A DNA stretch of 64,000 nt from Candidatus Altiarchaeales archaeon (GCA_014727915.1 WJMO01000006.1:265882-329881); one strand, 5' to 3'; positions 6,061 to 46,870 are shown, counted from the stretch's first letter. Numbers and translations: made by a program. Notes: generated from the letters alone by a model not told the origin.

Positions 6061-6063
6061 GGT

Positions 6064-7268: not shown

Positions 7269-7272
7269 ATTA

Positions 7273-8054: not shown

Positions 8055-9035
8055 ATGAAGGCATACTATATAGCTGCGAAATTCTTCCCGGAAGAAGTTA
8101 AGGAAGAGGTCCGGACGCTGCTACAATACTGCGGCAGCAGGATGAGCCCGGAAGTCTGGGTGGGAAGGGCGCTGCTGGTCAGCATGATGGTCTTCACCTT
8201 AGCCCTGTTCATAGTCCACTATACGATAGAAGACTACTGGAGGGCCGTGTTACTGATGCTGTTGGCATTGACAATCTACCACATAACGACATACCTGCTG
8301 CTCTTCTACAAGGCGGAAGGCCGGGCGAGGGCGGTGGAGAGGGTACTCCCCAACTTCCTGCAGCTGGTGGCGGCGAACCTGAACTCGGGGATGACCCCCT
8401 TCCAGGCGTTCAAGGAGTCCAGCAGGATGGAATTCGGGATACTCAAAGACGAGATAGACAACACCATCGCGCTTTCCATGGGTACCATGCCATTCCACGA
8501 CGCGCTGTTGGACATGCCTAAGAGGGTGAAGTCCACCATGTTCAAGAACGTCATCGAGCTGTTCGTGGAGGGGATGAAGACCGGCGGGCCGCTGGCCACC
8601 CTGCTGGCCGACATCGCCAAGGACATAAACGAGAACCTCGACCTGCGGAGGGAAATCGTGACACGCAGCAGGAGCTACATACTGTTCATATCCTTCATAG
8701 TCGTTTTCGGGTCGCCCCTGCTGACCGCGGTTTCCCTCCATTTCATACGCACAATAGACGAGGTCATCGGGGTCGTGCAGATGGAGATCCCGGAGATACA
8801 GAGCGTAGGGGGCATAAGCTTCGGCGAGCTCGTGCTCACCCCGGAGTTCCTGACCCGCGTGGGCATCGTGAACATCTCGCTCACCTCCCTGATAGCCAGC
8901 TGGCTTCTAGCGATAATCAGCCATGGGAAGGACAAGTACCTGTTCAGGTACGCTGTATTCCTCGTTCCCGCATCTATCGCGGCGTTCTTCATACTCGACT
9001 TCCTGATAAAGACGTTGTTGGGTTCACCGATATAA
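8055..9035 (+). CDS. pilus platform membrane protein 2, single T2SSF domain
   Basis: The 326-aa protein has the same TM-helical domain-TM layout as 6064..6951 (..NFLQLVAANLNSGMTPFQAFKESS..MPFHDALLDMPKRV..). Confidence 0.8.
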   Translation: MKAYYIAAKFFPEEVKEEVRTLLQYCGSRMSPEVWVGRALLVSMMVFTLALFIVHYTIEDYWRAVLLMLLALTIYHITTYLLLFYKAEGRARAVERVLPNFLQLVAANLNSGMTPFQAFKESSRMEFGILKDEIDNTIALSMGTMPFHDALLDMPKRVKSTMFKNVIELFVEGMKTGGPLATLLADIAKDINENLDLRREIVTRSRSYILFISFIVVFGSPLLTAVSLHFIRTIDEVIGVVQMEIPEIQSVGGISFGELVLTPEFLTRVGIVNISLTSLIASWLLAIISHGKDKYLFRYAVFLVPASIAAFFILDFLIKTLLGSPI

Positions 9036-9036
9036 G

Positions 9037-20697: not shown

Positions 20698-21123
20698 TTG
20701 GACAAAAGAGGTCAGGCTTCGCTGGAATACATGGTAATGCTGGCATTGTCACTGGTTGTCTTCTCCGCCGTGCTGTATGTAACTGGTATGCTGATAAGCA
20801 CCAGCAGCATACAGGTGGGGGTGGACTCCGCCCACCGGGCGGTGGAGAAGATGAGGAGCTCCGCGGACTTCGTGTACGTCCACGGACACCCCTCAAGGAC
20901 TGAAATAAACGTTTACATGCCTCCGAACATCGAGGAAGTCAGCATCCCGGAGACCAACAACAGCATACGCGCCCGCGTGTCGGTCGGCGACACCTACACG
21001 GACATATACAGCGTCTCCAAGGGAAGCATATACGGCGACCTATCGCAGCTGGACAAGGAAGGCTACTACGTGCTACGCGTTGAATCCACTTCAGAACACG
21101 ACATAAACTTCACGCTGATATAG
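20698..21123 (+). CDS. pilin-like protein, type A' (class III signal peptide)
   Basis: The gene has a TTG start preceded by a Shine-Dalgarno-like sequence. The N-terminus is MDKRGQASLEYMVMLALSLVVFSAVL. It is a paralogue of 1..341. Confidence 0.75.
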   Translation: MDKRGQASLEYMVMLALSLVVFSAVLYVTGMLISTSSIQVGVDSAHRAVEKMRSSADFVYVHGHPSRTEINVYMPPNIEEVSIPETNNSIRARVSVGDTYTDIYSVSKGSIYGDLSQLDKEGYYVLRVESTSEHDINFTLI

Positions 21124-21127: not shown

Positions 21128-22102
21128 ATGAATAAACCATGGAAGAAGCGGGGACAGGTTAGCATAGAGTTCATGATAGTATTGGGGATAGTACTGACCA
21201 TCTTCATAATACTGGGCTACATCGTCTACAGGAACTACGTCAAGACAAGCGACCTTAAGGTCTACATATACGGCGTGCGATTGGCCAATCACATAGCGGA
21301 CAACATAAACACCATAAACGCCGTGGGAGAAGGTCACAGCACCTCCTTCAGCCTGCCGCCAAGCCTTTACGGAAACAGGGGATACAGCGTCAGCTTCTAC
21401 GAGAACTCTTCAACCGTCTATGTAGTGGGCACCAGCTTCTCACGCGGCGGGGGAGCGGTGACCTTCAGCAGCCCCATATCAACGGCGAACATCAACTGCC
21501 TGCTGGGAGAATGCAATATGGGATGCAATACGAGCCGGGTGGAGCAGTGCATCGCCGTTAACCGGAGCCTTGACATACGGCTTGTGAAGTACCAGGGAGG
21601 GATCTACATGACACAGGAGAACAATGTCATGCAGGCCAGTTCGGAGGGGTCCATCTCACCATTCACGGGAGAGGGGGATGTTACCGTTGGCAGCATACCA
21701 TCTTTCGTCGAGGTTGGAGAGGACTGGAACGTCATGTACGTCCACCATAACAGGTTAGACGACACAGTAAGCCTTGTGATAAGCCTCAACATCACCTCAG
21801 GGGATGCTGCAGAATACAACATATATGATATGGTAGGTGAGGTGTTGGAGGTGCAATCCAACGAGGCAGACCCCCAGAACCCCGAATTCAGCCTTAGCCG
21901 GCCTTTAGAGGGAGCCTGGAACAATGACCTGGGAGGGCTTGGAGACGTTGACGGGGCTGTTCTGAAGTTCAGGGACGGATTCCACCTCTGCATAGAGTCC
22001 GGTAGCGGCACTATGACTTCCAGCGACTGGAAGGTGGTCAGCTCGGACGGCAGTAGCATGCTCTTGGACAAGGAGGAGGACGTGTGCCTAGCATACCCGT
22101 GA
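21128..22102 (+). CDS. pilin-like protein, type B' (expanded)
   Basis: The N-terminus is KKRGQVSIEFMIVLGIVLTIFIIL. The first ~110 aa are collinear with 345..770, followed by a ~200-aa extra C-terminal domain. Confidence 0.75.
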   Translation: MNKPWKKRGQVSIEFMIVLGIVLTIFIILGYIVYRNYVKTSDLKVYIYGVRLANHIADNINTINAVGEGHSTSFSLPPSLYGNRGYSVSFYENSSTVYVVGTSFSRGGGAVTFSSPISTANINCLLGECNMGCNTSRVEQCIAVNRSLDIRLVKYQGGIYMTQENNVMQASSEGSISPFTGEGDVTVGSIPSFVEVGEDWNVMYVHHNRLDDTVSLVISLNITSGDAAEYNIYDMVGEVLEVQSNEADPQNPEFSLSRPLEGAWNNDLGGLGDVDGAVLKFRDGFHLCIESGSGTMTSSDWKVVSSDGSSMLLDKEEDVCLAYP

Positions 22103-22104
22103 AG

Positions 22105-24396
22105 ATGGAGAGAGGACAGATATTCACATGGGACCTGGTGTTCGGGATATCCGTATTCCTGATGACATTGTTCATCGTGACGCACGTGTGGAACAGCTCA
22201 TACAACGACCTAAGGCACGCTGAAGAGGAGTATGAGATGAACTGGCTTGCAGAAACCATCTCAGAACAGCTTGTGAGAACGGCCGGGGACCCGCTGAACT
22301 GGAGTCAAGGGCACGTGTTCGCCTTCGGCCTGGCGGAGGTCAAGGAAGGCCAGAGCAAATACGACAGCAGAGTGCTGGACGCCGACAAGATGCTCAAACT
22401 GGTAAGCAACTTCGGAGAGGACTATGAGGCTGCCAGGAACAACCTGCTAGGATCGAGCAAATACGAGATATACATAGAGTTCTCATGCGTAAACCGATCG
22501 GACCTAACATGCCTTCAGGGGCTTTTCCTGGACGAAATCAACGACCCAGTATCATGTGAGAACTATGTAATCGGGGTGAAGGACATGGTCACCAGCAGCT
22601 ACATATGGCTGGAGGCGGAGGATGAGTGGGGCAACTGGGAGGAATCCTACTGCTGGGAGGGGTGCAGCGGAGGCAACATGAGCCTGGTCCCCGACGGGAT
22701 CGAAGCGGATCTGAGCATGGACCCAGGGCTGTACCAGATGTGGGCTAGGGTGGTAGACCAGCAGACGAGCGCAGAGATGGTAGTGGACGGGCTGGCACAC
22801 CCGCTTCACCCGGATTCCGTGCCCGGGCCTGTCGGTTGGAAGTGGATAGGAGCTCAAGACCTCGGGAAAACAGCCAGGGTCCGCTTTGAGAAGACCGAAG
22901 GGGACATAGTAGACGCCCTGCTATTCACCACTGACCTCTTCTACGACCCCTCTCTGATAAACACCGAAGAATACGGGAACCCCGTTACATCCGACAAGTG
23001 CGTTATAGGGAAGGTCGGCAGGGGCCGCAACCACGTCACCGCAACCAAGAACGCTGTATTCGGGATGCCTGCAAAGGGCAGGGAGGTGATAACAGGGACG
23101 GCGGATAGGCTGGACAAGGAGTTGAACATGAAAGTCGTCGTCTGGACAGGCGAGGAACTGCCAGCCCGGGAGATGACAGGAACCGTAGGGACGAGCTCTA
23201 CGACATCCACCACCCTGCCTAAATGGATAGACTGCGAGGGTAGCCCAACGCCCGTGGAACCGTTGGAGGAATGCGAGTACGATTCTCACTCCATAGACAT
23301 AAGGAACATAACGCTATGGGGCCTCAATGGAATGAGCAGGGTCATCCGATGCGGGAGCGAGAAGAACCTCACAGTAAAGTGGCGTGGTAAGCACAGCAAC
23401 CACCCCAACTACTTCGCATTCTACCTTGACGACAGCCAACAGTACCTCGGGTCATGCCAGAGCGACAACACAGCGGAAGAGCTGATGGGAGAGGTCTACG
23501 ACTATGTCATGAACTGCACCATAGACATACCCGACGGGGACAGCTTCCCAGTCAAGGACGGATACCACGACTTCATAGTTACAGGCGAGGACTACGCAGG
23601 ATACTGCCCGCCAAGCCCCGGCGAGTTCTACGCAGACGATGAGGAGTCGACGAGAGTGGACGTCACGGAATGCATGGACTACACTAGCCTATCCTGCTCT
23701 CAGACCTCAGGAGTCGCGCTTAGGTGCGGAAGCGCAAGCGGTACGGTCGAGGAAGTATACGACGTAGAAGTGAGCGAACTAAACTGCGGATTCTTGAACC
23801 AGGTGGTGGTAAGGTGGGGTGGAACCCACGGAGCAGACAAGGAGGTATACTGGACTTTCGTCGTCGACACAGGAGAGGGTTTCAAGTGCCTTGGAACCTG
23901 CAAGTCGTCGGTGGACCCAGAGGACGGGCCAGGCAGGGAAGACTATGAGATGACATGTGACCTGAACCTGAACAACCTGGACTGTCTCGGAGACCCATAC
24001 AACATAGAAGGGGACTACTGGTTCTACGCAATCGCGGAATCAGACAACAGGGACTACTGCAGCCTGCCCAACAGTCCGGACGCTGAGGCGGTTGGCAGGA
24101 CCGGTAATCAGGTGACGGTGAACTGCATCCTATCCGGGAGCTACGTGCTCGTGAAATACTACGTTGACGTGGCGGTAGCGACCGGGTCGGAGCTGTGGAC
24201 GGACACCTCTGGGACATGGGAGGTGACGGCCACGGTCAGCCCGCTCGACCCGCCGACGGAAGGGGAGCACATGGCATTGATAGACGATATCGAACCCGGG
24301 GTTTACGAGTGGAACATCAAACTCTCCCCCGAGGGTGTGAAGCCGTTGACCAATGATTTCTTATACGATGAAAATCAAGAGTTAATAGTGGAGTAA
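22105..24396 (+). CDS. pilin-like protein, type C' with lectin-like and Cys-rich C-terminal domains
   Basis: The ATG at 22105 lies 2 nt after the B' stop (the track GTG at 22084 overlaps B'). The N-terminus is MERGQIFTWDLVFGISVFLMTLFIV. Motifs DPLNW..FGLAE..VLD are shared with 772..1281. A CBM6/35-like segment YIWLEAEDEW..SGG..LYQMWARV..GWKWIG..DALLFTTD lies at about 22600..22950. Confidence 0.7.
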   Translation: MERGQIFTWDLVFGISVFLMTLFIVTHVWNSSYNDLRHAEEEYEMNWLAETISEQLVRTAGDPLNWSQGHVFAFGLAEVKEGQSKYDSRVLDADKMLKLVSNFGEDYEAARNNLLGSSKYEIYIEFSCVNRSDLTCLQGLFLDEINDPVSCENYVIGVKDMVTSSYIWLEAEDEWGNWEESYCWEGCSGGNMSLVPDGIEADLSMDPGLYQMWARVVDQQTSAEMVVDGLAHPLHPDSVPGPVGWKWIGAQDLGKTARVRFEKTEGDIVDALLFTTDLFYDPSLINTEEYGNPVTSDKCVIGKVGRGRNHVTATKNAVFGMPAKGREVITGTADRLDKELNMKVVVWTGEELPAREMTGTVGTSSTTSTTLPKWIDCEGSPTPVEPLEECEYDSHSIDIRNITLWGLNGMSRVIRCGSEKNLTVKWRGKHSNHPNYFAFYLDDSQQYLGSCQSDNTAEELMGEVYDYVMNCTIDIPDGDSFPVKDGYHDFIVTGEDYAGYCPPSPGEFYADDEESTRVDVTECMDYTSLSCSQTSGVALRCGSASGTVEEVYDVEVSELNCGFLNQVVVRWGGTHGADKEVYWTFVVDTGEGFKCLGTCKSSVDPEDGPGREDYEMTCDLNLNNLDCLGDPYNIEGDYWFYAIAESDNRDYCSLPNSPDAEAVGRTGNQVTVNCILSGSYVLVKYYVDVAVATGSELWTDTSGTWEVTATVSPLDPPTEGEHMALIDDIEPGVYEWNIKLSPEGVKPLTNDFLYDENQELIVE

Positions 24397-24400: not shown

Positions 24401-27400
24401 ATGAAAAGGGTGGTTTTTTGTGTTTTCTGGCTTTTAACCCTGAGCAGCCTAGCTTCGGCTGACGTCACATACACAATCCACCCCCAGGAGCACACGTTCA
24501 GGCCTGGGGAGACGGTCGAATACTTCATAACAGTCAGCAACACAGGAGGAGCGACCGAGACTGTTGACTTCGACGTCACAGGACTGACCCCCGGATTCTC
24601 CTCTACGGTAGTGTACAGGGACGATGAAATACTAGCAGGAGCCTCCATAGTCGCCACTATGAGGATAACCGCCAACATCGGCGTCTCAGAGGGCACATAC
24701 ACCAACCAGGTAGTGGTGACCCCCAGCAGCCAGGGACCGTTGAGCGTTGACAACATCATACTACCAGGGCGCGGGAACCCCGTGGTAGAGGGGGTGGTGA
24801 ACTTCTGCCGGGACAGCGACAACCTGGTGAAGATGTCCTGCTCTTCCACGGGATACTTCGACTCCGACGCCCTGTGCGGGGGAGCCCAGGTCGGGCATTG
24901 GGTCGAGTTCGGCGATGGAGTGGACGCGGGCAAGTGCACGGAGATCGTGGGGGCAACCTGCGGTAGCGAATGCTGGCCGCTAGGACACCCGTGTCTGGAG
25001 ATAGGCATACCGGTAGTAGCGGAACAGGGCTACGCGTTCATGGTGTGGGAGAGCGGATTAAGCTGCAACGAGTTCGCCACAACAACCACCACATCAACGA
25101 CAGTAACGACCACCTCAAGCACGGTGATAACCACGACCAGCACCAGCACCACGTCGACCACCATATACCAGCCGCCGACCGAGAACTGCTGCAACCAGGT
25201 CGACGACGACGGCGATCCGTGGATCGACGGCGAGGACACCGTAGACTGCCAGAAGGACAGAGGACTGAACGTGGGCTGGAACAACATATGCTGGGCGACT
25301 AGGTGGGACGACTACGCCCCCAGCTCGGACTACCAGTCCGGCGAGTACACCTGCCCGACGGACCACATCGTCTCGGAAGTCGAGATAATCCAGTACATGG
25401 AGGATTGCTGCGACTACTTCCGCATATACGACTCGAGCGACAGCATAGTACACCAGAGCAACGGAGATAACGGGTTCAGGACCATCGACGTCAGGGGGGC
25501 GAGCACCCAGAGCATATACTTCGAGTTCACAAGCGACGGAAGCAACGAATACGACGGCGTGAGGGTGAACAGGATAGAATGCGAGCACGTGTCAGACCAG
25601 TGCCGGGACACGTGCATCTCGGAAGGCTACCTGGACGGACAGTGCAGGGGCATCGACCTCTCGGGCACATCATGCACCAGCTACCTACCGGACAGCTTCT
25701 GCGAAGTGGACTACCTTGGAGAGATGTGCTGTGAAGGGTTCTCCGACGGCACAGACTGCCCGGACAGCTCCTACGATTTCTTCGAGTCATGCTGCGAGAC
25801 AAACGGAAAATTCCTGGGAGGCTACGACCCAATGGCCCCGTTGGACTGCGCCGGTGAGGGAGTAACATTCGAGTGCGTGGATGACAACAACTGCGACGGA
25901 CTAGTATGCCTTGGGACCACCCACATAGGGAGGACTCCCTGCCCGTTCCCCGACCAGCAGCAGTGCTGCTGCAGTGGAACGCCCCAGACCACAACCACTA
26001 CGACCATAGTGTCCGCTCCGGAGGTCTGCTGCAACGACTACGACGACGACTACGACGGCTTGGAGGACGGAGAGGACGAGACGGACTGCAACGGAGACGT
26101 CACCCTGGAGGCTGGAGCGAACAGCGTATGCTGGTGGACGCGGTGGGACAACTACGCCTCTAGCTCGGACTACCAGTCCGGCCTCTACACCTGCCCGGCA
26201 GACCACATAGTTACAGACGTGGACGTCACGCAGGACATGGAAACATGCTGCGACTACTTTGAGATACTAGACGACACCGGAGCAGAGCTTCACAGCAGCT
26301 ACGGCCACTTCGGGGACAGGGTGATAGACCTTTCCACGCACAAGAAGCAGAGCATAAGGTTCCACTTCACCAGCGACATAAGCCAGGAATACGACGGCGT
26401 GAAGATAAACTCGATAACATGCGTGGAATACGTGGGCCCAACGACGACTTCGACCACATCCTCGACGGTGACCACATCAACCCTGCCCGGCGGATGCCTG
26501 GACATGGACGCGACACAGTACTGCGCGGTGACTGGCGGGCGCACGTTCACGGGAGAGTACATAACACGCGTGGACATTCATGGAATAGACCGCTCTTCGG
26601 GGCAGGAACGCTACCTGGACGCTACGGACAGCGTCACGGACCCGCTAGTGAAGACCGGAGTATACATGCTAAGGCTCTACTATCCGGCGGCTACAGGCCA
26701 GGCCGGCGACTGCTTCGCGGCCTGGTTCGACTGGAACCAAGACGACAACTTCGACGACGGAACGGAAAGGATCAGCCTTGGCTGCGCCCACACCGGCTCA
26801 GACCACATAGACGGTTTCGTCGGAGTACCATCGTCCGCGGTGAACGGGCCGACGATGTTCAGGATCATGGGCGAGGACGGCACACCCCCAGGCCCCTGCA
26901 CGGACCCGAGCTTCAACGAGATAGAGGATTACTCGGCATGCATAACGGACACAGGAACCCCGGCAACGACAACGACAACGACATCCACAACCCTGCCAGG
27001 GCCCGAGCTGATAATATCGGACGTCATAGTTTCGCCGAACCCGCCGGTGGCGGGGCAGAACAACGACCTCCAAGTCACCGTAAAGAACCTTGGCGTGGTG
27101 GAGGTCACAAACACTGACCTTTACATTTCATTCAAGGCCCAGGGAACAAGCTGCGGATGGACCAGCAAGTTCGTCTCTTCACTACCTTACAACGGAGAGA
27201 CCGTGTTCAGCGGGTTGTCCTACTTCATCGACACGGCCAGCGTAGGGAACGACCTGCTGATCGACGTCGACGTCAACCCCAACCTATGCGGGAGCGATAG
27301 GAACTATGTCAGCGAGGTCTTCGAGGACAACAACCAGTGGAATGCGGGCGCGGTAGAATCCCCGCCGATGCCGGACCTGATAATAACCGACGTGCAGCCG

Positions 27401-30400
27401 AGCCCGGACCCGCCGGAAGGGGACGCAACGAACAGCTTTGACGTGACAGTCAAGAACGTGGGAAGCGACAGCACAGGATCGGCCACAACATACCTTTCGG
27501 CTGATGTGGCCGGCACCAGCTGCCAGGAGACGAGCATATTCCTGAACGACCTCGCCCCGAACTCCCAGCAGACCTATACGATGAGCTTCTTCATCAACGC
27601 CGGAAGCGCGGGGCAGCCCATATACTTCGACGTCGACTACGGGCCGAATCTATGCGGTTATTTCAGGAGCTACATCACAGAGGAGGATGAGACAAACAAC
27701 GGATTCATAGGGCCGACCGTCCTGCCAGATACCATGGGATTGAGGAACCCTGGCTTCGAATCCGGGAGTGGCGCGGACGCGGACAACTGGGATGAAAGCT
27801 TCGCCAGTGCGGATAGGTCGAGCGACAGGTCGCATGACTCCACATATTCCATGAAGTTCATAGCCCCCAACACACCCCAGTCGGTGTTCCAGGAGACGGT
27901 TAGGGTTCTGCCAAACGTCGAATACCGCCTTGGAGGGTGGATATACGACAGCCTGACATCGGGTAACGCATACCTGGACCTGAACGACATAGGAGAGGAG
28001 TGCGAAGCCGGTTCGACGCTTAACGGCCAGTGGGAGCACGTGGAATGCACGTTCACAACGGGCAGCAGCAGAGAGATCGTCACCGTCCGTATGGTCACCG
28101 ACGGCTCCATCGCAGGGAACACAGGCAACGTATGGTTCGACGACCTGGAGCTGGAGCCTGCCGCGGCGGCGCCGGAGGTCTGCTGCAACGACGCGGACGA
28201 CGACTTCGACTCGTTGGAGGACGGCGAGGACATGGTGGACTGCAGCCAACCAGCCGTTTCGCTCTCCCCAGGATCTAACAGCGTTTGCTGGTGGACGCGG
28301 TGGAACGACTACGAACCGGGTTCAAGCTACAAGTCCTTCACCTTCGAATGCCCGAGCGGATACCACGTGAGCGAGCTGAACATGGACGTCGACACCGAGG
28401 CCAACAATGACGTCATAAGCATCTACGACGACTACACAAACTTCCTGCTGGCGGAGAGGAGCGGGAGCAGGCCCTCGGAGACCGTCGACGTGTCCGAGTT
28501 CAAGAAGGGCAGCGTGCACATGTGGTTCAGCAGCGACAGCAACACACAATACGACGGGGTCAAGGTGAACACGATCACATGCGGCCAGAGCCTGGACACC
28601 TGCGACGCGGAATGCCTGTCAAGGGGTTTCGACTCCGGAACGTGCCGGCCCATAGACTTGTCAGGGACCTTCTGCAGGGAATTCCTCCCTGATACCTGGT
28701 GCACAATAGACGATCCGGGCGGGAACCTCTGCTGCGAGGGCCCCGCGGACACGGACCTGGACTGCGCCAACGACCCGTACATGTTCTACTCGGCATGCTG
28801 CGGGCAGAACGGGGAATACCTGACGGAATACGACCCTATGGGTCCGGCTAACTGCGGCTTTGAGGGAAGCACCTTCTGGTGCGCAGCCACGGACCCTTGC
28901 AACGGCGTCTGCCTCGGGGACAGACACATCGGAAGGACGCCCTGTGCGGACCCGGACAATGAGGTGTGCTGCTGCGCGGGCATCGGTCCCACGACCACAA
29001 CATTGGGTGTGGCAACAGAGATCTGCTGCAACGACTTCGACGACGACACGGACGGGTTGGAGGACGGAGAGGACGAATCAGACTGCGACATGGACGTCAA
29101 CCTGAACACCGGGACAAACAACGTGTGCTGGTGGACGCGGTGGAACGACTACGCATTCGGCTCCAACTACGGGTCGGGATGGTACATATGCCCGGCGGGG
29201 AACATAGTGTCGGAGGTCAGCATAACCCAGGACATGGAAAGCTGCTGCGACTACTTCAGCATATACAATTCAGGCAATACAATCATAGATTCGAGCAACG
29301 GGCAGCAGGGAACTAGGACTTTGGACCTGTCAGCGGACGGCACAGACAGGATAAGGTTCGAGTTCACAAGCGATGGGAGCGTCCAATATGACGGGGTGAA
29401 GGTCCACACGATCACCTGCTTTGAGCCCACGCCAGAGGACTGCTGCAATGGCATAGACGACGACACGGACGGGTTAATGGACGGGGAAGACGAGGCAGAC
29501 TGCGGTGGGGGAGTGGCGATGCTCAGCAACACCGTTAATCCGATATGCTGGTGGACGCGGTGGGACGACTACTCACCTTTCTCAGACTATAACTCCCCCG
29601 TCTACGAGTGCCCTTTGAACAGCAAGGTGACGGATGTCGAGGTGGACCTGCAGACGGAGGGAGGTTATGACTACTTCAGGATATACGATGACGACGGGGA
29701 CGTTCTCTTGGAGGAGTTGGACGGGCAGTTCGGACTGTATACCGCAGACATCTCAAGCGACGACGCCAGGAGCATCTACTTCAACTTCTACAGCAACAGC
29801 GGAATCGAATATGACGGTGTAAAAATCAACAGCATAACCTGCGCGCAGATGACGACTACCACCTCGACCACCCTGCCGACAGCGATAACCGAGGGCGTGG
29901 TGGACGAGTGCGACGACACGGTCGACGGCGCGGGAACGTTCTGCGTCAGCGGGGAGGGCTTCAGCTCGGCAGCCCTGTGCGGCGGAGTCCAGGCAGGCGA
30001 CTGGGTCGGATTCCACACGGGATACGAGAGCGGCAGGTGCCTGGAGGTGGACACGACATTCTGCACTCCCTGCTTCGGAGGCTCCAACGACTGCATATAC
30101 TTCAACGAGGTCTTCCCCTTGACGATACAGCAGGGCGACCAGTTCAAAGTATGGGATAGTCTTACCGACTGCCTCGACGACGTGCCCGCGATACCCGCGG
30201 GGACCAACCTGGAGATAGTGAAGCTGGGCTCGAGCTGGGGGCAGATAGGCACGTACAACTCCGTGGACTTGAACGCGTATGTCAAGAACACCGGCACAGC
30301 CAACGCCGCCGCCACATTGTACGCGGACTTCCTGGTGGAGCACCCCAACGGCGACACCTGCCTCGCGGACACCCGAAGCACGGCATTGAACCCGAGAGAG

Positions 30401-33400
30401 GTCGGAAAGTTCACAGTACTATGGGACACTGACATAGACGTGGGTACTAACACGGTGACTGCATTCATCGACAAGGACAACACCTGCGGCAGCGGCCATG
30501 ACACGAACTCGGAGACTGATGAAACAGACAATTCGATCGTCGAAACGTTCGACGTGGCAGGCCCCGACCTGGTGATAACCGACGTATCAACCTCCCCGGA
30601 CCCTTTGGATGAGGGGAGCAACGACATCACCGTTACGGTCGAGAACATCGGTGGATCGACAGCATACGACCCGATAACGGTTAAGGTAAACGTTCCCGGG
30701 GAGCCGTGCGCCAGCGCGAACACGTTCGGACAGATGGACCCGGGACAGACTGAGACGGTCAGCATAAGCGGGTACGTGCTGAGCGCCAACGCAGGAGGCC
30801 GGCAGCTGAATGCGTCAGTTGACGCTAACCCGGACGTCTGCGGCCAGGACAGCGACAACACCCCATACGAGGAGGACGAGAGCAACAACGAATACGCGGA
30901 CGGCATAGTCGCCGGGGGAGGCCCCGACCTGCAGATAACCGACCTGCAGCTTAGCGACACAACACCCGCGAAAGGAGATTACATAACGTTCACCGCGACC
31001 GTGGAGAACACCGGGTCCTTCGAGACTACCATCGGTTGGATATACGTGGACATGGTCTTGGACGACGGGAGCTGCCTGTGCACGGGCAACGCATACGTGA
31101 ACATGCAGCCGGGTGACGCGAGGACTTTCAGCTGCGGGTGGACCGTGAACAAGGTGGGGACGCGCACAATAACGGCCATCGTCGACGGGCCGAACGACGA
31201 TAACAGCTGCGCCAACCACGATTACATCGACGAGATGAGCGAGACCAACAACGGCTTCCCGTACAACGTGGACATCGCCGGACCCGACCTGGTCATCGAG
31301 AACTTCCAGATGACACCCGCAAGCCCAGCATACAACGAGCAGGTGACGTTGAGCGCGGACGTCCGGAACACCGGGACCACAGCCACGGGTTGGGGCACCA
31401 AGTACATCTACTTCTCGCTCGATGACGGGATATGCCCCAGCATAGGCAACACCTACAGGAACCTCGACATCGCCGCTGGAGGGGTAGAGTCTTTCTCCCG
31501 GACATGGAACGCAAACACGAGGGGAACACGCACGATAACAGCGTCCGTAGACTCTAAAACACCCTGCGCCAACTACGACAACACCCCCGAGACCGACGAA
31601 TCGAACAACAACGCGACCACCGCCCCCTTCCACATACCGGGTCCGGACCTCCAGATAAGCAACCTAGTCATAAGCGACATGACACCCGCCATGGGGGACA
31701 GCGTTACCTTCACGGCTACCGTAGTGAACACCGGCGACGAAGCGACCAGCGGGAACAAGTACATCAAGTACGTGACGAACGAGAGCGAATGCCTCATCGC
31801 CACCTCGAAGAACGTGAACCTCGCCGCGGGCGGAGGCACCGACACCATAACGGGGAACTGGAACGTGAACGTCGCTGGGAAGCAGACGATAACGGCGATG
31901 ATAGACCGGAACCACGTTTGCGCCAACTACGACTACACCGACGAGACCGACGAGGGCAACAACAACTTCACGTCCACGCTGGTGGACATAACGCCCCCCG
32001 ACCTGGTAGTGGAGAGCCTCGAGTTCATACCATCAGACCCGGGAATAGGGGAGAATGTGATACTGAGAGCGACCATCAGGAACGACGGCACCGCAAAGGC
32101 GGTTAACAGTATCTATGTGATGTTCCAGAACGCCACCAGCTGCATAGGATACAGGAGCACCAGTTTGGACATCAACCCAGGGCAGAGCTACCAGATGTCT
32201 GATTACACCTGGAGCATGAAGTGGCCGGGCACCCAGACGATAACAGCCACCGTAGACAGGGACATCGCGGGATGCAATTGGAACTTCGACTACAACGCCG
32301 AAGCGGACGAGACAAACAACGAGCTGGCGAACACGTTCACTGTTTTGCAGCCGGACCTGATAATAGAGTCCCTGCAGGTGGAGCCTGCGAGCCCCGGAAC
32401 CAACGAGTACGTAACGTTCAGGGCTACCGTGGGGAACCAAGGACCGGGCACCGCAGGATACACTATACAGGTAGGATTCAAGAACGCTACAACCTGCATC
32501 GCGACCTCCCTCTCCTCCAATGACATACCTCCAGGCGGGAGCCTCGACATAACGCACAGCAGATACTGGAGGTGGCCCGGGGCGCAGACCCTGACTGCCT
32601 ACGTGGACACGGAAGTGCCAGCTTGCAGCTGGTACTTCGACAACCACCCCGACGAATTGGACGAAGGCAACAACGACTTGTCAACCACGTTCACCGTCCT
32701 CCAACCCGACCTGGAGATAGTCAACGTCGTCCCGGACCCTGACCCCCCGGCGCCGGGAGCCAACTACTTCGACATAACCGTCCGAAACAACGGGCCAGGG
32801 ACCGCGGGCGGGAACATAGTTGTGACTTACAAGTCGCCGGGTACATCCTGTGTGTCAAGGTCCACCGGCACGGACATACCATCGGGCGGGGAGTACACGT
32901 TCAACAACCAATACTACAACATGCAGGCCGCGAGCGCAGGGCAGGGTGTCATGTTCGACGTGGACAAGGCGGACAGCCTATGCGGCAACGACCAAGACAA
33001 CAACATTGAGACCGACGAGACCAACAACGAATACCAGATCGGCTCAGTATCCCTGCCAGACCTGGTGGTAAGCAACGTGGCCACCAGCCCGGACCCGCTT
33101 GCGGCAGGGCAGTGGAACGACCTGGACATAACCATAGAGAACCAGGGAGCCGGGCCGACGGACAGCAGCTACATATACACGTCCGTGATAGCCCAGGGTT
33201 CGAACTGCAACAACTACAACACCCCCTATAACCTACACCTCGCCCCCGGGGAATCATACACGTACAACGTACAATACTACATATACGGGTCAAGCTCTGG
33301 GGAGAACCTAGTCGCGTCGGTGGACGCGAGCCCCAGCGTCTGCGGAGGAACCAGCTACAACTACAACATAGAGTCGGACGAGACCAACAACCAGCACACC

Positions 33401-33418
33401 ATCGGAGTGATAACTTAA
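24401..33418 (+). CDS. giant secreted multidomain surface protein (3005 aa), putative adhesin
   Basis: The ORF is uninterrupted and starts 4 nt after the C' stop. It has a Sec signal peptide (MKRVVFCVFWLLTLSSLASA). Its modular content is listed in the repeat features and findings. Confidence 0.9.
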   Translation: MKRVVFCVFWLLTLSSLASADVTYTIHPQEHTFRPGETVEYFITVSNTGGATETVDFDVTGLTPGFSSTVVYRDDEILAGASIVATMRITANIGVSEGTYTNQVVVTPSSQGPLSVDNIILPGRGNPVVEGVVNFCRDSDNLVKMSCSSTGYFDSDALCGGAQVGHWVEFGDGVDAGKCTEIVGATCGSECWPLGHPCLEIGIPVVAEQGYAFMVWESGLSCNEFATTTTTSTTVTTTSSTVITTTSTSTTSTTIYQPPTENCCNQVDDDGDPWIDGEDTVDCQKDRGLNVGWNNICWATRWDDYAPSSDYQSGEYTCPTDHIVSEVEIIQYMEDCCDYFRIYDSSDSIVHQSNGDNGFRTIDVRGASTQSIYFEFTSDGSNEYDGVRVNRIECEHVSDQCRDTCISEGYLDGQCRGIDLSGTSCTSYLPDSFCEVDYLGEMCCEGFSDGTDCPDSSYDFFESCCETNGKFLGGYDPMAPLDCAGEGVTFECVDDNNCDGLVCLGTTHIGRTPCPFPDQQQCCCSGTPQTTTTTTIVSAPEVCCNDYDDDYDGLEDGEDETDCNGDVTLEAGANSVCWWTRWDNYASSSDYQSGLYTCPADHIVTDVDVTQDMETCCDYFEILDDTGAELHSSYGHFGDRVIDLSTHKKQSIRFHFTSDISQEYDGVKINSITCVEYVGPTTTSTTSSTVTTSTLPGGCLDMDATQYCAVTGGRTFTGEYITRVDIHGIDRSSGQERYLDATDSVTDPLVKTGVYMLRLYYPAATGQAGDCFAAWFDWNQDDNFDDGTERISLGCAHTGSDHIDGFVGVPSSAVNGPTMFRIMGEDGTPPGPCTDPSFNEIEDYSACITDTGTPATTTTTTSTTLPGPELIISDVIVSPNPPVAGQNNDLQVTVKNLGVVEVTNTDLYISFKAQGTSCGWTSKFVSSLPYNGETVFSGLSYFIDTASVGNDLLIDVDVNPNLCGSDRNYVSEVFEDNNQWNAGAVESPPMPDLIITDVQPSPDPPEGDATNSFDVTVKNVGSDSTGSATTYLSADVAGTSCQETSIFLNDLAPNSQQTYTMSFFINAGSAGQPIYFDVDYGPNLCGYFRSYITEEDETNNGFIGPTVLPDTMGLRNPGFESGSGADADNWDESFASADRSSDRSHDSTYSMKFIAPNTPQSVFQETVRVLPNVEYRLGGWIYDSLTSGNAYLDLNDIGEECEAGSTLNGQWEHVECTFTTGSSREIVTVRMVTDGSIAGNTGNVWFDDLELEPAAAAPEVCCNDADDDFDSLEDGEDMVDCSQPAVSLSPGSNSVCWWTRWNDYEPGSSYKSFTFECPSGYHVSELNMDVDTEANNDVISIYDDYTNFLLAERSGSRPSETVDVSEFKKGSVHMWFSSDSNTQYDGVKVNTITCGQSLDTCDAECLSRGFDSGTCRPIDLSGTFCREFLPDTWCTIDDPGGNLCCEGPADTDLDCANDPYMFYSACCGQNGEYLTEYDPMGPANCGFEGSTFWCAATDPCNGVCLGDRHIGRTPCADPDNEVCCCAGIGPTTTTLGVATEICCNDFDDDTDGLEDGEDESDCDMDVNLNTGTNNVCWWTRWNDYAFGSNYGSGWYICPAGNIVSEVSITQDMESCCDYFSIYNSGNTIIDSSNGQQGTRTLDLSADGTDRIRFEFTSDGSVQYDGVKVHTITCFEPTPEDCCNGIDDDTDGLMDGEDEADCGGGVAMLSNTVNPICWWTRWDDYSPFSDYNSPVYECPLNSKVTDVEVDLQTEGGYDYFRIYDDDGDVLLEELDGQFGLYTADISSDDARSIYFNFYSNSGIEYDGVKINSITCAQMTTTTSTTLPTAITEGVVDECDDTVDGAGTFCVSGEGFSSAALCGGVQAGDWVGFHTGYESGRCLEVDTTFCTPCFGGSNDCIYFNEVFPLTIQQGDQFKVWDSLTDCLDDVPAIPAGTNLEIVKLGSSWGQIGTYNSVDLNAYVKNTGTANAAATLYADFLVEHPNGDTCLADTRSTALNPREVGKFTVLWDTDIDVGTNTVTAFIDKDNTCGSGHDTNSETDETDNSIVETFDVAGPDLVITDVSTSPDPLDEGSNDITVTVENIGGSTAYDPITVKVNVPGEPCASANTFGQMDPGQTETVSISGYVLSANAGGRQLNASVDANPDVCGQDSDNTPYEEDESNNEYADGIVAGGGPDLQITDLQLSDTTPAKGDYITFTATVENTGSFETTIGWIYVDMVLDDGSCLCTGNAYVNMQPGDARTFSCGWTVNKVGTRTITAIVDGPNDDNSCANHDYIDEMSETNNGFPYNVDIAGPDLVIENFQMTPASPAYNEQVTLSADVRNTGTTATGWGTKYIYFSLDDGICPSIGNTYRNLDIAAGGVESFSRTWNANTRGTRTITASVDSKTPCANYDNTPETDESNNNATTAPFHIPGPDLQISNLVISDMTPAMGDSVTFTATVVNTGDEATSGNKYIKYVTNESECLIATSKNVNLAAGGGTDTITGNWNVNVAGKQTITAMIDRNHVCANYDYTDETDEGNNNFTSTLVDITPPDLVVESLEFIPSDPGIGENVILRATIRNDGTAKAVNSIYVMFQNATSCIGYRSTSLDINPGQSYQMSDYTWSMKWPGTQTITATVDRDIAGCNWNFDYNAEADETNNELANTFTVLQPDLIIESLQVEPASPGTNEYVTFRATVGNQGPGTAGYTIQVGFKNATTCIATSLSSNDIPPGGSLDITHSRYWRWPGAQTLTAYVDTEVPACSWYFDNHPDELDEGNNDLSTTFTVLQPDLEIVNVVPDPDPPAPGANYFDITVRNNGPGTAGGNIVVTYKSPGTSCVSRSTGTDIPSGGEYTFNNQYYNMQAASAGQGVMFDVDKADSLCGNDQDNNIETDETNNEYQIGSVSLPDLVVSNVATSPDPLAAGQWNDLDITIENQGAGPTDSSYIYTSVIAQGSNCNNYNTPYNLHLAPGESYTYNVQYYIYGSSSGENLVASVDASPSVCGGTSYNYNIESDETNNQHTIGVIT
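25076..25165 (+). repeat. Thr/Ser-rich linker (low complexity)
   Basis: This segment encodes ATTTTTSTTVTTTSSTVITTTSTSTTSTTI. Similar shorter T-rich linkers lie at about 25981..26010, 26441..26480, 26950..26990 and 29851..29880. They also occur at 52430..52487 and 52981..53040 in another gene. Confidence 0.85.
25181..26431 (+). repeat. segmental unit 1: CUB-like module / Cys-rich module / CUB-like module
   Basis: CUB-like copies lie at 25181..25590 and 26015..26431. Each has CCN.(D)DD.D...DGED..DC, then (I/V)CW(A/W)TRW(D/N)(D/N)Y, CP, CCDYF.I(Y/L)D, F.FTSD....YDGV.(V/I)N.I.C. They flank a ~130-aa Cys-rich module (25591..25975). Confidence 0.8.
26485..26948 (+). other. GEVED-like domain within giant protein
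   Basis: The segment contains ..CFAAWFDWNQDDNFDDGTERISLGC.. and ends in FNEIEDYSACI, which compares with the W.D.N.DG.F / GEVEDY signatures of the GEVED domain. Confidence 0.5.
26996..27705 (+). repeat. two CARDB-like Ig repeats
   Basis: The repeats are PELIISDVIVSPNPPVAGQNNDLQVTVKNLG ... EDNNQWN and MPDLIITDVQPSPDPPEGDATNSFDVTVKNVG ... EEDETNNGF. Confidence 0.7.
27726..28165 (+). other. CBM4_9-like carbohydrate-binding jelly roll within giant protein
   Basis: The segment begins LRNPGFESGSGADADNWDE and ends NVWFDDLELE. The N.GFE.G...W start and the final hydrophobic-D-D-h-.l strand are typical of CBM4/9-type modules. Confidence 0.5.
28169..29425 (+). repeat. segmental unit 2: CUB-like module / Cys-rich module / CUB-like module
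   Basis: The order is the same as in unit 1: CUB-like at 28169..28593, Cys-rich at 28594..28985, CUB-like at 29011..29425. The Cys-rich modules align throughout (C.(D/A).C(I/L)S.G(Y/F)(L/D).G.CR.IDLSGT.C...LPD..C ... HIGRTPC..PD...CCC(S/A)G). The DNA string tgctggtggacgcggtgg recurs at about 26129, 28277, 29126 and 29546. Confidence 0.8.
29426..29850 (+). repeat. fifth CUB-like module
   Basis: The module reads PEDCCNGIDDDTDGLMDGEDEADC...ICWWTRWDDY...YDYFRIYDDDG...IYFNFYSNSGIEYDGVKINSITC. Confidence 0.75.
30195..33415 (+). repeat. tandem array of nine CARDB-like Ig repeats
   Basis: Unit starts lie at about 30195, 30560, 30919, 31279, 31639, 31994, 32348, 32702 and 33055, a period of 353-365 nt. 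Each unit begins (G/P/Q)PDL.(I/V), then ..P..G....(T/I)..(V/I).N.G, and ends E(T/S)DE(T/S/G)NN. Confidence 0.8.
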
Positions 33419-33435: not shown

Positions 33436-33459
33436 AGGGATATATCCATTTAATTGTAC

Positions 33460-34980
33460 ATGGGCGGCCATAAGCTCCGATGGGAACTGATAGCAGGGAA
33501 TGGCTTGGGTAAGACTGCTAGGAAGGCTTTCAACACCCTCCCGTACCTAATACTCGTCCTTCAGGTCCTGACTTACATGCTCATATTCACGGCGACCACC
33601 TTCAACGAGTACAACCGGTTCTGGTACGGGAACTTCGACCTGGGAATACCAGACCAGGGCATATGGCTGCTGTCAAGGTTCCAGAACCCCTACCTGACGA
33701 CCAGGGGGCTGCACCTTTTCGGAGACCACGCATCCTACATACACCTGCTCGTCGCGCCCATATACTGGATATGGGACGACGTCAAAGCCCTGCTGCTGCT
33801 GCACACTGCGGCGTTGGCCATAGCGGCGGTTCCGGTATACCTGATCGCCCGGGACAAGTTCGGCAACAACTGGACGCCGCTGGTGTTCAGCCTCTCATAC
33901 ATCATGCTACCGGCGGTACACTACAGCAACCTCGACCAGGGATACCACTATGAGACTTTCATGGTGCCCTTCCTGCTCTTCGGATACTGGTTCCTCACAC
34001 GCAAGATGTACAAGCCATACTATCTTATGATATTCCTCTCCCTCATCTGCAAGGAGGAGATAGCAGTGTCCATAGTGCTGTTCGGGGTCTACGTTGCGTT
34101 GAAGCACGACCGGAAGGCGGGTGTTATTACCTCGGCTGCTGCATTGTTCTACCTGCTCATGGTGATGAAGGTGCTGTTCCCGATATTCAACCAGGAGGGG
34201 GCGTTCTATACCGACCGAACCCTCGGCTCATACGGTAAGACGCCGTTGGACAAGGTGAAGAGCTTCACAAACACCACGTTGATGGAGAAGAAGCTGAACA
34301 CCGAGAAGAACAGGGTTTACGTGAAGAAGCTTCTGGAGTCAACAGGGTACATGGTCTTGCTGGAGCCAATAGCAATGGCGGCATCGGGATCGCTGTGGCT
34401 CAACATGCTCCAGGACTGGTCCTACGCCCACGAGATACAGTACCACTACGTCACGCCCATCATACCGTTCATATACATAGCCCTGATAAACGGGATTGGG
34501 AGGTTCAGGAGGAGCGAGGGTATTATGGCCATGCTCTTGTACCTGATTCTACTTTCCACGTTCTACGGGAACTACCATAACAGCCCCGGGCAGAGCACCC
34601 TACGCCACCCCGAGCGGATGATGACCGAGATAGAGAACTTCGACGAGGTGACGGAGGAGAACGCCGGCATACTGGAGTTGATGGATTCCATACCGGATGA
34701 CGCGTCCGTCTCCGCCACATACGACTTCGTCAGCCATCTCAGCCACCGGAAGACCATATACATGTTCCCCAACCCGTTCAGGATAAACCTGTACGGGATA
34801 GAGGAGCGGGGCGTCCACCCCGACAAGGACGTCGACTACGTGCTGTTGGACATGCGGCTGATAGGGGACGAAGAGCAGAAGCACGGGTCCGTCAGCAAGG
34901 TCACGAAGAGCGGGAAGTACGAGCTGGTGAGAGAGTACAGGTTCGTCCAGCTATGGAAGTACAAGGGAGAGCCCGAATAG
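33460..34980 (+). CDS. DUF2079-like polytopic membrane protein (probable GT-C)
   Basis: The ATG is at 33460. The sequence ..LFGDHASYIHLLVAPIYWIWDDVKALLLLHTAALAIAAVPVYLIA.. fits the lg.H..pi.ll..P.y.l....ll..q....a..a.p.y pattern of DUF2079. There is a large C-terminal extracytoplasmic domain. Confidence 0.65.
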   Translation: MGGHKLRWELIAGNGLGKTARKAFNTLPYLILVLQVLTYMLIFTATTFNEYNRFWYGNFDLGIPDQGIWLLSRFQNPYLTTRGLHLFGDHASYIHLLVAPIYWIWDDVKALLLLHTAALAIAAVPVYLIARDKFGNNWTPLVFSLSYIMLPAVHYSNLDQGYHYETFMVPFLLFGYWFLTRKMYKPYYLMIFLSLICKEEIAVSIVLFGVYVALKHDRKAGVITSAAALFYLLMVMKVLFPIFNQEGAFYTDRTLGSYGKTPLDKVKSFTNTTLMEKKLNTEKNRVYVKKLLESTGYMVLLEPIAMAASGSLWLNMLQDWSYAHEIQYHYVTPIIPFIYIALINGIGRFRRSEGIMAMLLYLILLSTFYGNYHNSPGQSTLRHPERMMTEIENFDEVTEENAGILELMDSIPDDASVSATYDFVSHLSHRKTIYMFPNPFRINLYGIEERGVHPDKDVDYVLLDMRLIGDEEQKHGSVSKVTKSGKYELVREYRFVQLWKYKGEPE

Positions 34981-46165: not shown

Positions 46166-46870
46166 ATGGATGGTTACACAGTTCTCATACCGGTCTACAA
46201 CGAGGAGGACATACTGGAGGATAACATCAGAAAGCTTATGGAGTACCTGGACGACCACATGCCAGGCTATCGGATAATCGTCTGCAGCAACGGGTCCACA
46301 GACCGTACGGACGAGATAGGGTCGGGTATAGACGATCCGAGGGTAAGCTTCATCTCCATACCAGAGCGGGGTGTTGGACGGGCTTTCAAGAGGATGGTCC
46401 TAGAGGCTGAGACTGATAAGCTCGTATCCATCGACGTTGATCTAACAAGCGATTTGAGGTTCATACCGGAGTGCGTGCGGCTCCTGGACGAGAACAGCAT
46501 AGTGATAGGGTCGAAGAGGAAGGGAGAGCAGGAGCGGCAGCCGCACCGAACCCTCATAAGCAACGTTTTCATAAAGTTGGTGAAGGTGCTTCTGGGATTG
46601 AAGTACAGCGACTACAGCATCGGCACCAAGGGGTGGAGGAAGTCAGCTATCTCCGAATACGTCGGGGGAATAGACCACGGATCGTCCTATGTTATAGAGC
46701 TGACATACTATGTGGAAGTGGGCGGCGGCGTGATAGCTGAGGTCCCGGTCTTCTGCTCGGACACCCGGGGAAGCAAGTTCAACATAGTAAATGAGATTTT
46801 CTACAGGCTCTACAATCTGCTGAGGTTGTGGGCCAGGGTAAAGCTGGTCAGAGGGCGAAGAACCTCTTGA
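46166..46870 (+). CDS. GT2 glycosyltransferase, dolichyl-phosphate sugar synthase-like
   Basis: Motifs present are TVLIPVYNEEDIL, IIVCSNGSTDRT and SIDVDLTSD (DxD). The protein is short (234 aa) and soluble or peripheral. Confidence 0.85.
   Translation: MDGYTVLIPVYNEEDILEDNIRKLMEYLDDHMPGYRIIVCSNGSTDRTDEIGSGIDDPRVSFISIPERGVGRAFKRMVLEAETDKLVSIDVDLTSDLRFIPECVRLLDENSIVIGSKRKGEQERQPHRTLISNVFIKLVKVLLGLKYSDYSIGTKGWRKSAISEYVGGIDHGSSYVIELTYYVEVGGGVIAEVPVFCSDTRGSKFNIVNEIFYRLYNLLRLWARVKLVRGRRTS

Follow-up and report, generated by a model that had tools for sequence, protein, structure and literature searches.

What are the repeated Cys- and Asp-rich modules of a giant archaeal surface protein, and what might they do? 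The question is raised by a 64,000-nucleotide stretch of DNA, here called the window, from a Candidatus Altiarchaeales archaeon (GCA_014727915.1 WJMO01000006.1:265882-329881). An earlier note on this DNA described five copies of a ~140-residue module, each with an acidic loop between cysteines followed by motifs that recall the CUB domain. We find all five in a single open reading frame (ORF) whose product is a secreted surface protein of 3005 residues, and the description of each as an acidic double-disulfide Ca-clamp joined to a divergent CUB domain, present five-fold in an archaeal giant surface protein, is well supported. Coordinates of all features are given in Table 1.

Five modules in one giant protein

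Motif searches and self-BLAST of segments were used to position the modules (M1 to M5), and a six-frame hidden Markov model (HMM) scan of the 64 kb returned exactly five copies, all within the giant ORF. Their pairwise amino acid identities of 39–59% (BLAST E values of 1e-28 to 1e-54) greatly exceed what chance would give and bear out the earlier description of five related copies. Each contains the loop CCN..DDD.D...D.ED..DC, the motif CW(W/A)TRW..Y, a CP dipeptide and the terminal YDGV(K/R)(V/I).(S/T/R)I.C, as the earlier note had it; the CCDYF element that it ascribed to every copy is found in only three (M1, M2 and M4), with NNDVI in its place in M3 and GYDYF in M5.

The modules are arranged M-X-M ... 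M-X-M-M, and the alignable Cys-rich module reported between copies is clearly recovered: X1 and X2, each of ~140 residues, are 49% identical with all 18 cysteines aligned, including CC, CC and CCC runs. The AlphaFold2 model of this module has a predicted local distance difference test score (pLDDT) of 37.6, and no homologues were found in a word-indexed search or among 150 relatives. X1 begins with C..C...G...G.C and has a weak Pfam match to gamma-thionins (E 0.009); X is possibly an orphan disulfide-knot domain. A further internal duplication, absent from the earlier note, consists of the ~95-residue N domains, which are 36% identical (E 6e-14) and bracket the repeat region, N1 standing before M1 and N2 after M5. 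The N domain has no match in the PDB, Pfam or NCBIfam.

The two M-X-M blocks had been read as the products of one segmental duplication. This history predicts that M1 and M3 should be close, but they are the least similar pair of modules (39–41% amino acid identity), and synonymous divergence (dS) between modules, at 0.7–1.8, shows no pairing of M1 with M3 or of M2 with M4. Duplication of a single block, M1-X1-M2 giving M3-X2-M4, is therefore not confirmed, and we do not retain it. The ratio of nonsynonymous to synonymous divergence (dN/dS) between copies is 0.3–0.6, which does not indicate strong diversifying selection.

The 18-nucleotide string TGCTGGTGGACGCGGTGG, previously pointed out as conserved in four copies, is indeed present in M2 to M5. 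Three of its six codons encode Trp, and TGC accounts for 96% of the Cys codons in the giant ORF. Given the conserved amino acids, the chance of finding the same codons in four copies is ~0.004, which is mildly unusual for a stretch that was picked by hand; as a sign of anything beyond amino acid conservation and codon bias the identity is weak.

A divergent CUB sandwich with its own cysteine framework

The AlphaFold2 model made from the five-copy alignment has a pLDDT of 78, with most of residues 31–141 above 80–90, and contains an eight-strand sandwich spanning residues ~27–141. When this model was compared with the PDB using Foldseek, hits 1–27 were all CUB domains (E 7e-5 to 1.3e-3). The best match is C1r CUB2 (E 7e-5; template modelling (TM) score 0.62 on target length), and the others include CUBs of neuropilin-1/2, Kremen, enteropeptidase, TSG-6, PCPE-1, spermadhesins, MASP-1, TMPRSS6, Gpr126 and cubilin; the alignments cover ~113–126 columns of targets of 110–120 residues. 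The earlier note had named non-CUB folds at the head of a structural search as evidence against its CUB-like jelly roll. The head of this list is entirely CUB, and that claim is supported.

Sequence profiles point the same way. An exhaustive HMMER search of 1.84 billion representatives (clusters at 50% identity) with the five-copy profile matched 341 proteins at E<=1e-3. The full module is rare, being present in ~30 of these cluster representatives; beyond them, most matches are multi-repeat proteins aligned to the sandwich only. They include the Pfam-verified CUB proteins P0018 (13 CUB and 13 Sushi domains), P0022 and P0025 (CUB and VWA) and P0027 (all CUB), together with P0016, evidently of bacterial type, in which Pfam CUB and fn3 domains accompany a sorting tail of the type IX secretion system (T9SS). 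Conversely, a CUB-only HMM built from Pfam-verified CUBs matched, at E<=1e-5, 90 of the 117 proteins without a full module among the top 150 matches, as well as all five window modules (100 bits, E 7e-24). In hhalign comparisons with a CUB profile the five copies scored 98.2% (E 3.6e-14) and a 30-sequence alignment of the family 97.4%; among the controls, the family against CARDB gave 0.1%, the CUB profile against CARDB 3.2% and ten column shuffles at most 0.7%. The motifs TE.CCDY(L/V)EI.DG and F.SD.S....GF are common to the modules and the Pfam-verified CUBs of the comparison set.

The five-copy profile had no match among PDB sequences or in a word-indexed homologue search; in the latter, a profile of eight sequences recovered one truncated relative. 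M3 matches Pfam CUB at E 0.016 and M4 matches CUB_M02D8_5_3rd at E 3.9e-4; PF23062 scores the modules at 16–21 bits against a cut-off of 32 (best E 3.9e-4), and identity to real CUBs is 17–24%. Taking predicted structure and profile homology together, we consider the identification of the sandwich as a divergent CUB domain well supported.

When module and CUB are aligned globally, C27 falls on CUB Cys1 and W46..Y49 on the (Y/W)P..Y motif of CUB, and no large insertion is needed. We prefer this register because it fits the eight predicted strands and the near full-length Foldseek alignments; the local register of hhalign, in which C41-W42 would be CUB Cys2-x-W at the cost of a 15-residue insertion, is disfavoured.

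C7, C8, C27, C41, C62 and C138 are invariant across the 30 family sequences, and C80 aligns with CUB Cys3 in three of the five copies only. The number of cysteines is even in every module, the CC pair at 80–81 is present or absent as a pair, and in bacterial-type relatives C41 and the loop cysteines are missing together, with C62 and C138 kept. These patterns suggest disulfides C7–C27, C8–C41 and C62–C138, with a vicinal C80–C81 bond where the pair is present, since its two cysteines are gained or lost together. The earlier note had asked whether the cysteine topology is compatible with a CUB jelly roll: it is not the canonical CUB pattern, and it does not conflict with the fold, the topology being specific to this family. 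Several Pfam-verified CUBs of the comparison set also lack some canonical cysteines. A vicinal CC within TE.CCDY is seen in several Pfam-verified CUBs (CUB + VWA and T9SS proteins) as well as in three window modules, with no other free partner Cys, a hint that the Ca-site loop of CUB may contain a vicinal disulfide.

In C1s CUB1, Glu45, Asp53, Asp98 and Ser100 build a Ca2+ site and hold the ligand lysine (PMC4222235). Equivalents of Glu45, Asp53 and Asp98 are conserved in the module, where the CUB motifs TE, (C)D(Y) and SD.S are matched by E78, D82, D123 and S125. M1, M2 and M4 keep the whole set, and the E78/D82/D123 triad is complete in M1–M4; in M3 residue 125 is Asn, and in M5 residues 123 and 125 are Asn and Gly, respectively. 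Across the family (n=30), position 78 is E or D in 20, position 82 is D in 28 and position 123 is D in 22. The sandwich may thus hold a putative second Ca2+/ligand site formed by E78, D82, D123 and S125.

The module shares with the CUB family PF00431 (C1r/C1s, MASPs, cubilin, neuropilin, PCPE-1) a predicted sandwich that can be superposed on almost the whole of solved CUBs, homology of profiles in both directions, the motifs TE..(C)DY.EI.DG and F.SD.S....G, and an extracellular location. It differs in having six other invariant cysteines, an extended last strand that ends in Cys, and an acidic Cys-clamped loop that always precedes the sandwich. The contexts differ too, with archaeal CARDB, papain-like, PA14 and pilin partners in place of EGF, Sushi and protease-zymogen ones. 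The premise of the earlier note that CUB domains are essentially metazoan was overstated, in that CUBs outside animals have been published for a Bdellovibrio subtilisin-CUB (PMC2605481), bacterial alpha2-macroglobulins (PMC9848320) and sponge-symbiont Thaumarchaeota (PMC7848895), and bacterial-type P0016 was recovered here. Those prokaryotic CUBs match the standard Pfam model whereas the window modules fall below its threshold, and they have not been described with acidic-repeat fusions, five-fold arrays or pilin operons, which sets them apart as far as their descriptions go. A search of one literature library found no paper joining "CUB domain" with DPANN.

The acidic loop, NF033662 and Teneurin-4

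The loop has the spacing D-x-D-x-D-G-x-x-(D/N)-x-x-D. Its positions 1, 3, 5, 9 and 12 are D, D, D, D/N and D in 29–30 of the 30 family sequences, and Gly6 is kept in 26. The pattern Dx[DN]xDG is a recurrent Ca2+-binding device across structural contexts (PMC3123361). Proteins that match the five-copy profile in the loop only contain tandem or free-standing E(I/V)C.NG.DDD.DG..D..D.DC units, and these belong with the NCBIfam family NF033662 ("acidic double-disulfide repeat"), which matches the free-standing relative P0144 at E 1e-12 and two free-standing loops taken in isolation at E 5e-12 and 7e-12. The loops of two family relatives match it at E 6e-8 and 2e-6, and among the window loops M5 does so at E 2.3e-5 (24 bits) and M1 at E 1.4e-3 (18 bits), with M2, M3 and M4 not reported; the NF033662 cut-off of 41 bits applies to whole proteins and was set for multi-repeat proteins, and all family and window loop scores lie below it. 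Free-standing NF033662 relatives also include P0054, P0138, P0141 and P0142.

A search of the PDB with a free-standing loop relative found the Teneurin-4 C-rich domain (7PLP, E 2.4e-4) in an ungapped alignment, and with the family loop profile 7PLP is the only match among 177,635 PDB sequences. This domain binds three Ca2+ through E835, D840, D843, N844, D845, D847, D851, D854 and D856, has a C838–C857 disulfide, and has Ca sites I and II like those of thrombospondin type 3 repeats (PMC9058538). In a gapless 20-residue alignment, CCNgiDDDgDGleDGaDsdC faces C838-GDSKDNDGDGLVDCMDPD-C857 of 7PLP. The bracket is aligned (C7 with C838, C27 with C857), and five conserved Asp ligands coincide, D12, D14, D16, D20 and D23 falling on D843, D845, D847, D851 and D854. 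At two further ligands Asn and Asp are swapped (N9 for D840, D13 for N844), and the counterpart of an eighth ligand, D856, is D26 in most, not all, family sequences. On the strength of the kept bracket, the five Asp ligands and the Asn/Asp swaps, we infer by analogy that the acidic loop binds Ca2+.

The loop shares with NF033662, 7PLP and thrombospondin type 3 repeats the C...D.D.DG..D..D.DC spacing within a Cys bracket. It differs from NF033662 and 7PLP in being a single unit fused to a CUB sandwich, neither tandem nor free-standing, and the window loops have one extra residue before the closing Cys. It also begins with a CC doublet, has Gly at the position of Teneurin Cys852 and lacks the conotoxin-like C-terminal half of the C-rich domain, whose C852–C863 and C858–C869 pairs are unmatched. 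With Gly at that position, the second disulfide of the loop needs another partner, presumably C41 in the sandwich. The likeness to thrombospondin type 3 repeats proposed by the earlier note is thus borne out indirectly, through NF033662 and the Teneurin-4 sites (PMC9058538); a Pfam scan of the isolated window loops at E<=10 gave no TSP_3, MopE, dockerin or EF-hand match.

These sequence relationships suggest that the prokaryotic NF033662 repeat clamps several Ca2+ ions and that, like the rest of teneurin, its C-rich domain has relatives in prokaryotes. Neither NF033662 nor the teneurin C-rich domain has a Pfam model. What appears to be new here is a module family that no curated model reaches, Pfam and NCBIfam both scoring it below threshold, together with its obligatory acidic-repeat fusion, its non-canonical cysteine framework and the connection, at sequence level, of NF033662 with the Teneurin C-rich domain.

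Genomic setting and candidate roles

The giant protein has an isoelectric point (pI) of 4.05, a net charge of -352 and 4% Cys. The cytoplasmic proteins of the window have pI values of 5.6–9.6, so the acidity is a trait of surface proteins, and halophily as its cause is ruled out. From the N-terminus the protein consists of a Sec-type signal peptide, an Ig-like region, N1, a Thr-rich linker, M1-X1-M2, a GEVED region, two CARDB domains, a stretch of ~155 residues, M3-X2-M4-M5, N2 and nine CARDB domains. Pfam recognises the 11 CARDB stretches and GEVED, with CUB below threshold. The ~155-residue stretch has no Pfam or NCBIfam match, and a PDB search gave only a weak match to a protein with a T9SS tail (E 0.005). 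Residues 677–867 (nucleotides 26429–27001), around the GEVED domain, weakly resemble the last ~140 residues of a model for a Leptospira M4 thermolysin (NF047971, E 3.7e-5); Pfam finds no catalytic domain in the giant protein, and the thermolysin-like region has none. The Thr-rich linkers are probably glycosylated. In a hydrophobicity scan the N-terminus is the sole hydrophobic segment, and there is no C-terminal anchor.

Table 1. Features of the window, with positions counted from its first nucleotide.
Feature	Coordinates	Strand	Details
FlaI-like ATPase	4321..6060	+	NCBIfam NF058587, E 1.6e-79
FlaJ/TadC-like membrane proteins	6064..6951, 8055..9035	+	NCBIfam NF004704, NF004705
Pilin-like gene 1	20698..21123	+	MDKRGQ/ASLEY..., class III signal type; read from sequence
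Pilin-like gene 2	21128..22102	+	KKRGQ/VSIEF...; Pfam Class_IIIsignal, E 2e-5
Pilin-like gene 3	22084..24396	+	MERGQ/IFTWD...; 770 aa, acidic; DUF7287 weak; ends 4 nt before giant ORF
Giant secreted surface protein gene	24401..33418	+	3005 aa (ORF listing); one ORF holds all five modules
Sec-type signal peptide	24401..24460	+	MKRVVFCVFWLLTLSSLASA/DV; read from sequence
N1, 8-Cys domain	24782..25066	+	aa 128-222; 36% identical to aa 1829-1924
Module M1	25172..25588	+	aa 258-396; acidic Cys-clamped loop 25187-25249, CUB-like beta-sandwich; 8 Cys
X1, 18-Cys module	25589..26008	+	aa 397-536; between M1 and M2
Module M2	26012..26428	+	aa 538-676; loop 26027-26089, CUB-like sandwich; 8 Cys; 18-nt string 26129-26146
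GEVED domain	26717..26935	+	aa 773-845; Pfam PF20009, E 2.5e-12
Two CARDB domains	27002..27709	+	aa 868-982 and 991-1103; Pfam CARDB
~155-aa region, fold without assignment	27698..28165	+	aa 1100-1255; weak PDB match only
Module M3	28166..28588	+	aa 1256-1396; loop 28181-28243, CUB-like sandwich; 6 Cys, no CC pair; 18-nt string 28286-28303
X2, 18-Cys module	28589..29008	+	aa 1397-1536; between M3 and M4
Module M4	29009..29425	+	aa 1537-1675; loop 29024-29086, CUB-like sandwich; 8 Cys; 18-nt string 29126-29143
Module M5	29426..29851	+	aa 1676-1817; loop 29441-29503, CUB-like sandwich; 6 Cys; Asn in place of the CUB-site Asp; 18-nt string 29546-29563
N2, 8-Cys domain, second copy	29885..30172	+	aa 1829-1924; self-BLAST
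Nine-CARDB array	30206..33403	+	aa 1936-3001; Pfam CARDB, E 7.5e-72 for whole protein
DUF2079 membrane protein	33454..34980	+	last gene of co-directional cluster; Pfam PF09852, E 1.5e-60
TYW1	60.2-61.4 kb

The giant ORF is the fourth gene of a tight co-directional cluster, directly downstream of three genes with class III signals that are separated by 4-nucleotide gaps or overlap. In archaea, PibD-type peptidases process type IV pilins and pilin-like proteins, and their assembly relies on PilB/PilC-type components (PMC6098224). The giant protein itself has no (K/R)G(Q/A) motif, and its Sec-type signal makes it pilin-associated, not a pilin. Assembly genes of type IV pilus/archaellum type lie ~15 kb upstream; their FlaI and FlaJ matches to NCBIfam are below the equivalog cut-offs and are assignments at family level only. 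Together with TYW1 at 60.2–61.4 kb, these genes mark the window as archaeal.

The assembly set (4321–11716) continues from the FlaI/FlaJ-like genes into a glycosyltransferase of family 4 (GT4) and surface-glycopolymer genes, and AsnB-like and GT2 genes are found at 37–40 kb, beyond the pilin-adhesin cluster at 20.7–35 kb. Together these resemble a single large island for cell-surface biogenesis. A second very large ORF (40181–45292; 1703 residues, pI 9.3, no Pfam match) follows closely after the glycosyltransferase genes, and 46848–60013 is occupied by a run of large ORFs with no NCBIfam match (744, 617, 902, 406, 422 and 651 residues). The 902-residue product (51740–54448) has a pI of 4.2, as acidic as the surface proteins, and may be secreted.

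Most relatives elsewhere have one or two modules; P0007 has four, and the window protein, with five, has the most seen. The matches listed for a scan with the eight-sequence profile come from at least three species-representative genomes: a Candidatus Nanohalarchaeota metagenome-assembled genome (MAG), a Candidatus Aenigmatarchaeota MAG and an "uncultured archaeon". Other placeable members are on contigs with archaeal markers (TBP, MJ0711_N or class III signals). Every placeable member is thus on an archaeal contig, and the family is found mostly in DPANN-type archaea. Partner domains are CARDB with a papain-like peptidase and DUF2341, peptidase C1 with FG-GAP, PA14 with NHL, and GH12.

The association with pilins recurs. 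At one locus (L011) pilin-like genes stand immediately upstream of a 2139-residue module protein, in P0007 a class III signal/pilin N-terminus is fused to four modules, and the Aenigmatarchaeota MAG and two metagenome contigs (L003, L009 and L010) share synteny with pilin-like small ORFs downstream. The gene order at these three loci is module protein, a ~500-residue PPC-domain protein, a 700-residue protein and a string of small ORFs with class III-like signals. On an 8.2-kb contig (L004, JGI 3300016457) three module-bearing ORFs adjoin a TBP gene and a DUF2341 protein, which suggests local paralogous expansion of the family. A divergent subgroup with CCNN.DDD.DGMIDAQDSDCNQ (P0086 and P0098, at L008) consists of ~1300-residue proteins that end in a transmembrane segment like the pilin/TrbC of type IV secretion systems (T4SS); this subgroup may extend the family beyond archaea.

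The window protein resembles CARDB-rich archaeal giant surface proteins and putative adhesins in being secreted and multi-domain, with CARDB arrays, Thr-rich linkers and pilin-like neighbours, and differs from them in its five clamp-CUB, two 18-Cys X and two 8-Cys N modules, which have no annotated counterpart. On balance we favour the reading that the modules are Ca2+-stabilised ligand-binding units of a pilus-associated giant adhesin, each a Ca-clamp repeat with a divergent CUB, carried on a CARDB stalk. The protein, very acidic and rich in disulfides, would be exported through its Sec signal peptide. The first part of each module (residues ~5–27), an acidic double-disulfide unit of EF-hand/type 3 spacing closed by a disulfide, would bind two or three Ca2+ by analogy with the Teneurin-4 C-rich domain; the second (residues ~27–141), the divergent CUB sandwich, keeps the Glu/Asp/Asp positions that form the Ca2+/ligand site of Ca-binding CUBs in four of the five copies. 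The adhesin, rigidified by Ca2+, would sit on a pilus-like surface structure or be presented alongside one, its CUB modules recognising a partner cell, surface or polymer and its CARDB array serving as a stalk.

Several observations weigh against this reading. Pfam PF00431 scores the modules at 15.4–15.9 bits, below its gathering threshold of 21.4, and canonical CUB Cys2 and Cys4 have no counterpart, the CUB disulfides not being conserved. The direct match of the family loop to 7PLP is weak (E 0.087), and because the acidic loop is modelled at a pLDDT below 50 we infer the Ca2+ sites and the disulfide map, as we do the adhesin function, whereas the fold is well supported. The giant protein is of Sec type, not class III, and lacks an anchor that would attach it to a filament or to the cell. 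Nor is the pilin association universal, as L001 and L002 carry papain-like proteases and have no pilin neighbours, and the GH12, PA14 or NHL domains of other relatives suit a general binding module, not a pilus-specific one.

The modules could instead be purely structural, serving without a specific ligand as spacers, stiffened by Ca2+ and disulfides, within a fibre, sheath or wall-like layer at the surface, the CUB fold being reused only as a stable beta-sandwich much as in the CARDB array. Repeated beta-sandwiches do dominate the protein (11 CARDB and five CUB-like), the dN/dS values give no indication of strong diversifying selection, M5 has lost its CUB-site Asp, and the role of Ca2+ in the Teneurin-4 C-rich domain is to stabilise conformation, not to bind ligand (PMC9058538). 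A pure spacer, however, would have no need of the CUB acidic triad and neighbouring Tyr/Ser that are kept in four of five copies and most of the family, and the recruitment of single modules into proteases and a glycoside hydrolase makes more sense for binding than for spacing; we regard this explanation as unlikely.

A slightly less probable proposal, which we also doubt, is that the module targets extracellular hydrolases to their substrates in the manner of a carbohydrate-binding module (CBM), the giant protein being a polymer-binding scaffold and not a cell-cell adhesin. It draws on the fusions to papain-family peptidase C1 (P0003, P0004 and L002), GH12 (P0013) and PA14 or NHL domains, and on the GEVED and thermolysin C-terminus-like region of the giant protein itself, but the giant protein has no catalytic domain, its gene sits in a pilin operon, and pilin-fused P0007 has no enzyme domain either.

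Recent acquisition of the CUB part from animals, as a eukaryote-like domain of the kind proposed for sponge-symbiont Thaumarchaeota (PMC7848895), is improbable. The best relatives outside the family do include animal-type CUB + Sushi and CUB + VWA proteins with TE.CCDY, and archaeal CUB has been treated as eukaryote-like in that study; against this, ~30 divergent cluster representatives share a prokaryote-specific fusion with the acidic repeat, the placeable members all lie on archaeal contigs, each of another lineage or sample, related CUBs occur in T9SS proteins of bacterial type, and identity to animal-type CUBs is low. Very improbable is a convergent jelly roll (PPC-, GOLD-, Cry-domain-III- or CBM-like) with chance short motifs, for although the Pfam score, the low identity and the two absent cysteines leave room for it and Foldseek also lists Cry domain III, PPC, GOLD and the C-terminal Clostridium perfringens enterotoxin domain at E ~1e-3, these rank after the 27 CUBs with TM scores of 0.36–0.42 against 0.43–0.54, reciprocal HMM searches and hhalign both give highly significant scores while their controls stay clean, and the aligned motifs fall on CUB signature positions.

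A bolder and more tentative possibility is that clamp-CUB represents an indigenous, hitherto undescribed prokaryotic branch of CUB, a multi-Ca2+ clamp of Teneurin-C-rich/type 3 kind stapled by disulfides onto a CUB sandwich as the Ca2+-dependent recognition head of pilus-associated giant adhesins in DPANN-type archaea. The findings on the family overturn nothing, because prokaryotic CUBs are already on record; they are further evidence that animals did not invent CUB-type domains. For the giant "hypothetical" surface proteins of poorly known archaea they provide a concrete candidate for a binding unit that can be mutated, and sequence evidence ties the curated, uncharacterised NF033662 repeat to a solved Ca2+-binding structure, that of Teneurin-4 (7PLP). 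Should the indigenous branch prove real, two hallmarks of the animal extracellular matrix, the Teneurin C-rich motif and CUB itself, would trace to prokaryotic surface-protein modules, and host attachment by episymbiotic DPANN-type archaea would become testable through a defined domain.

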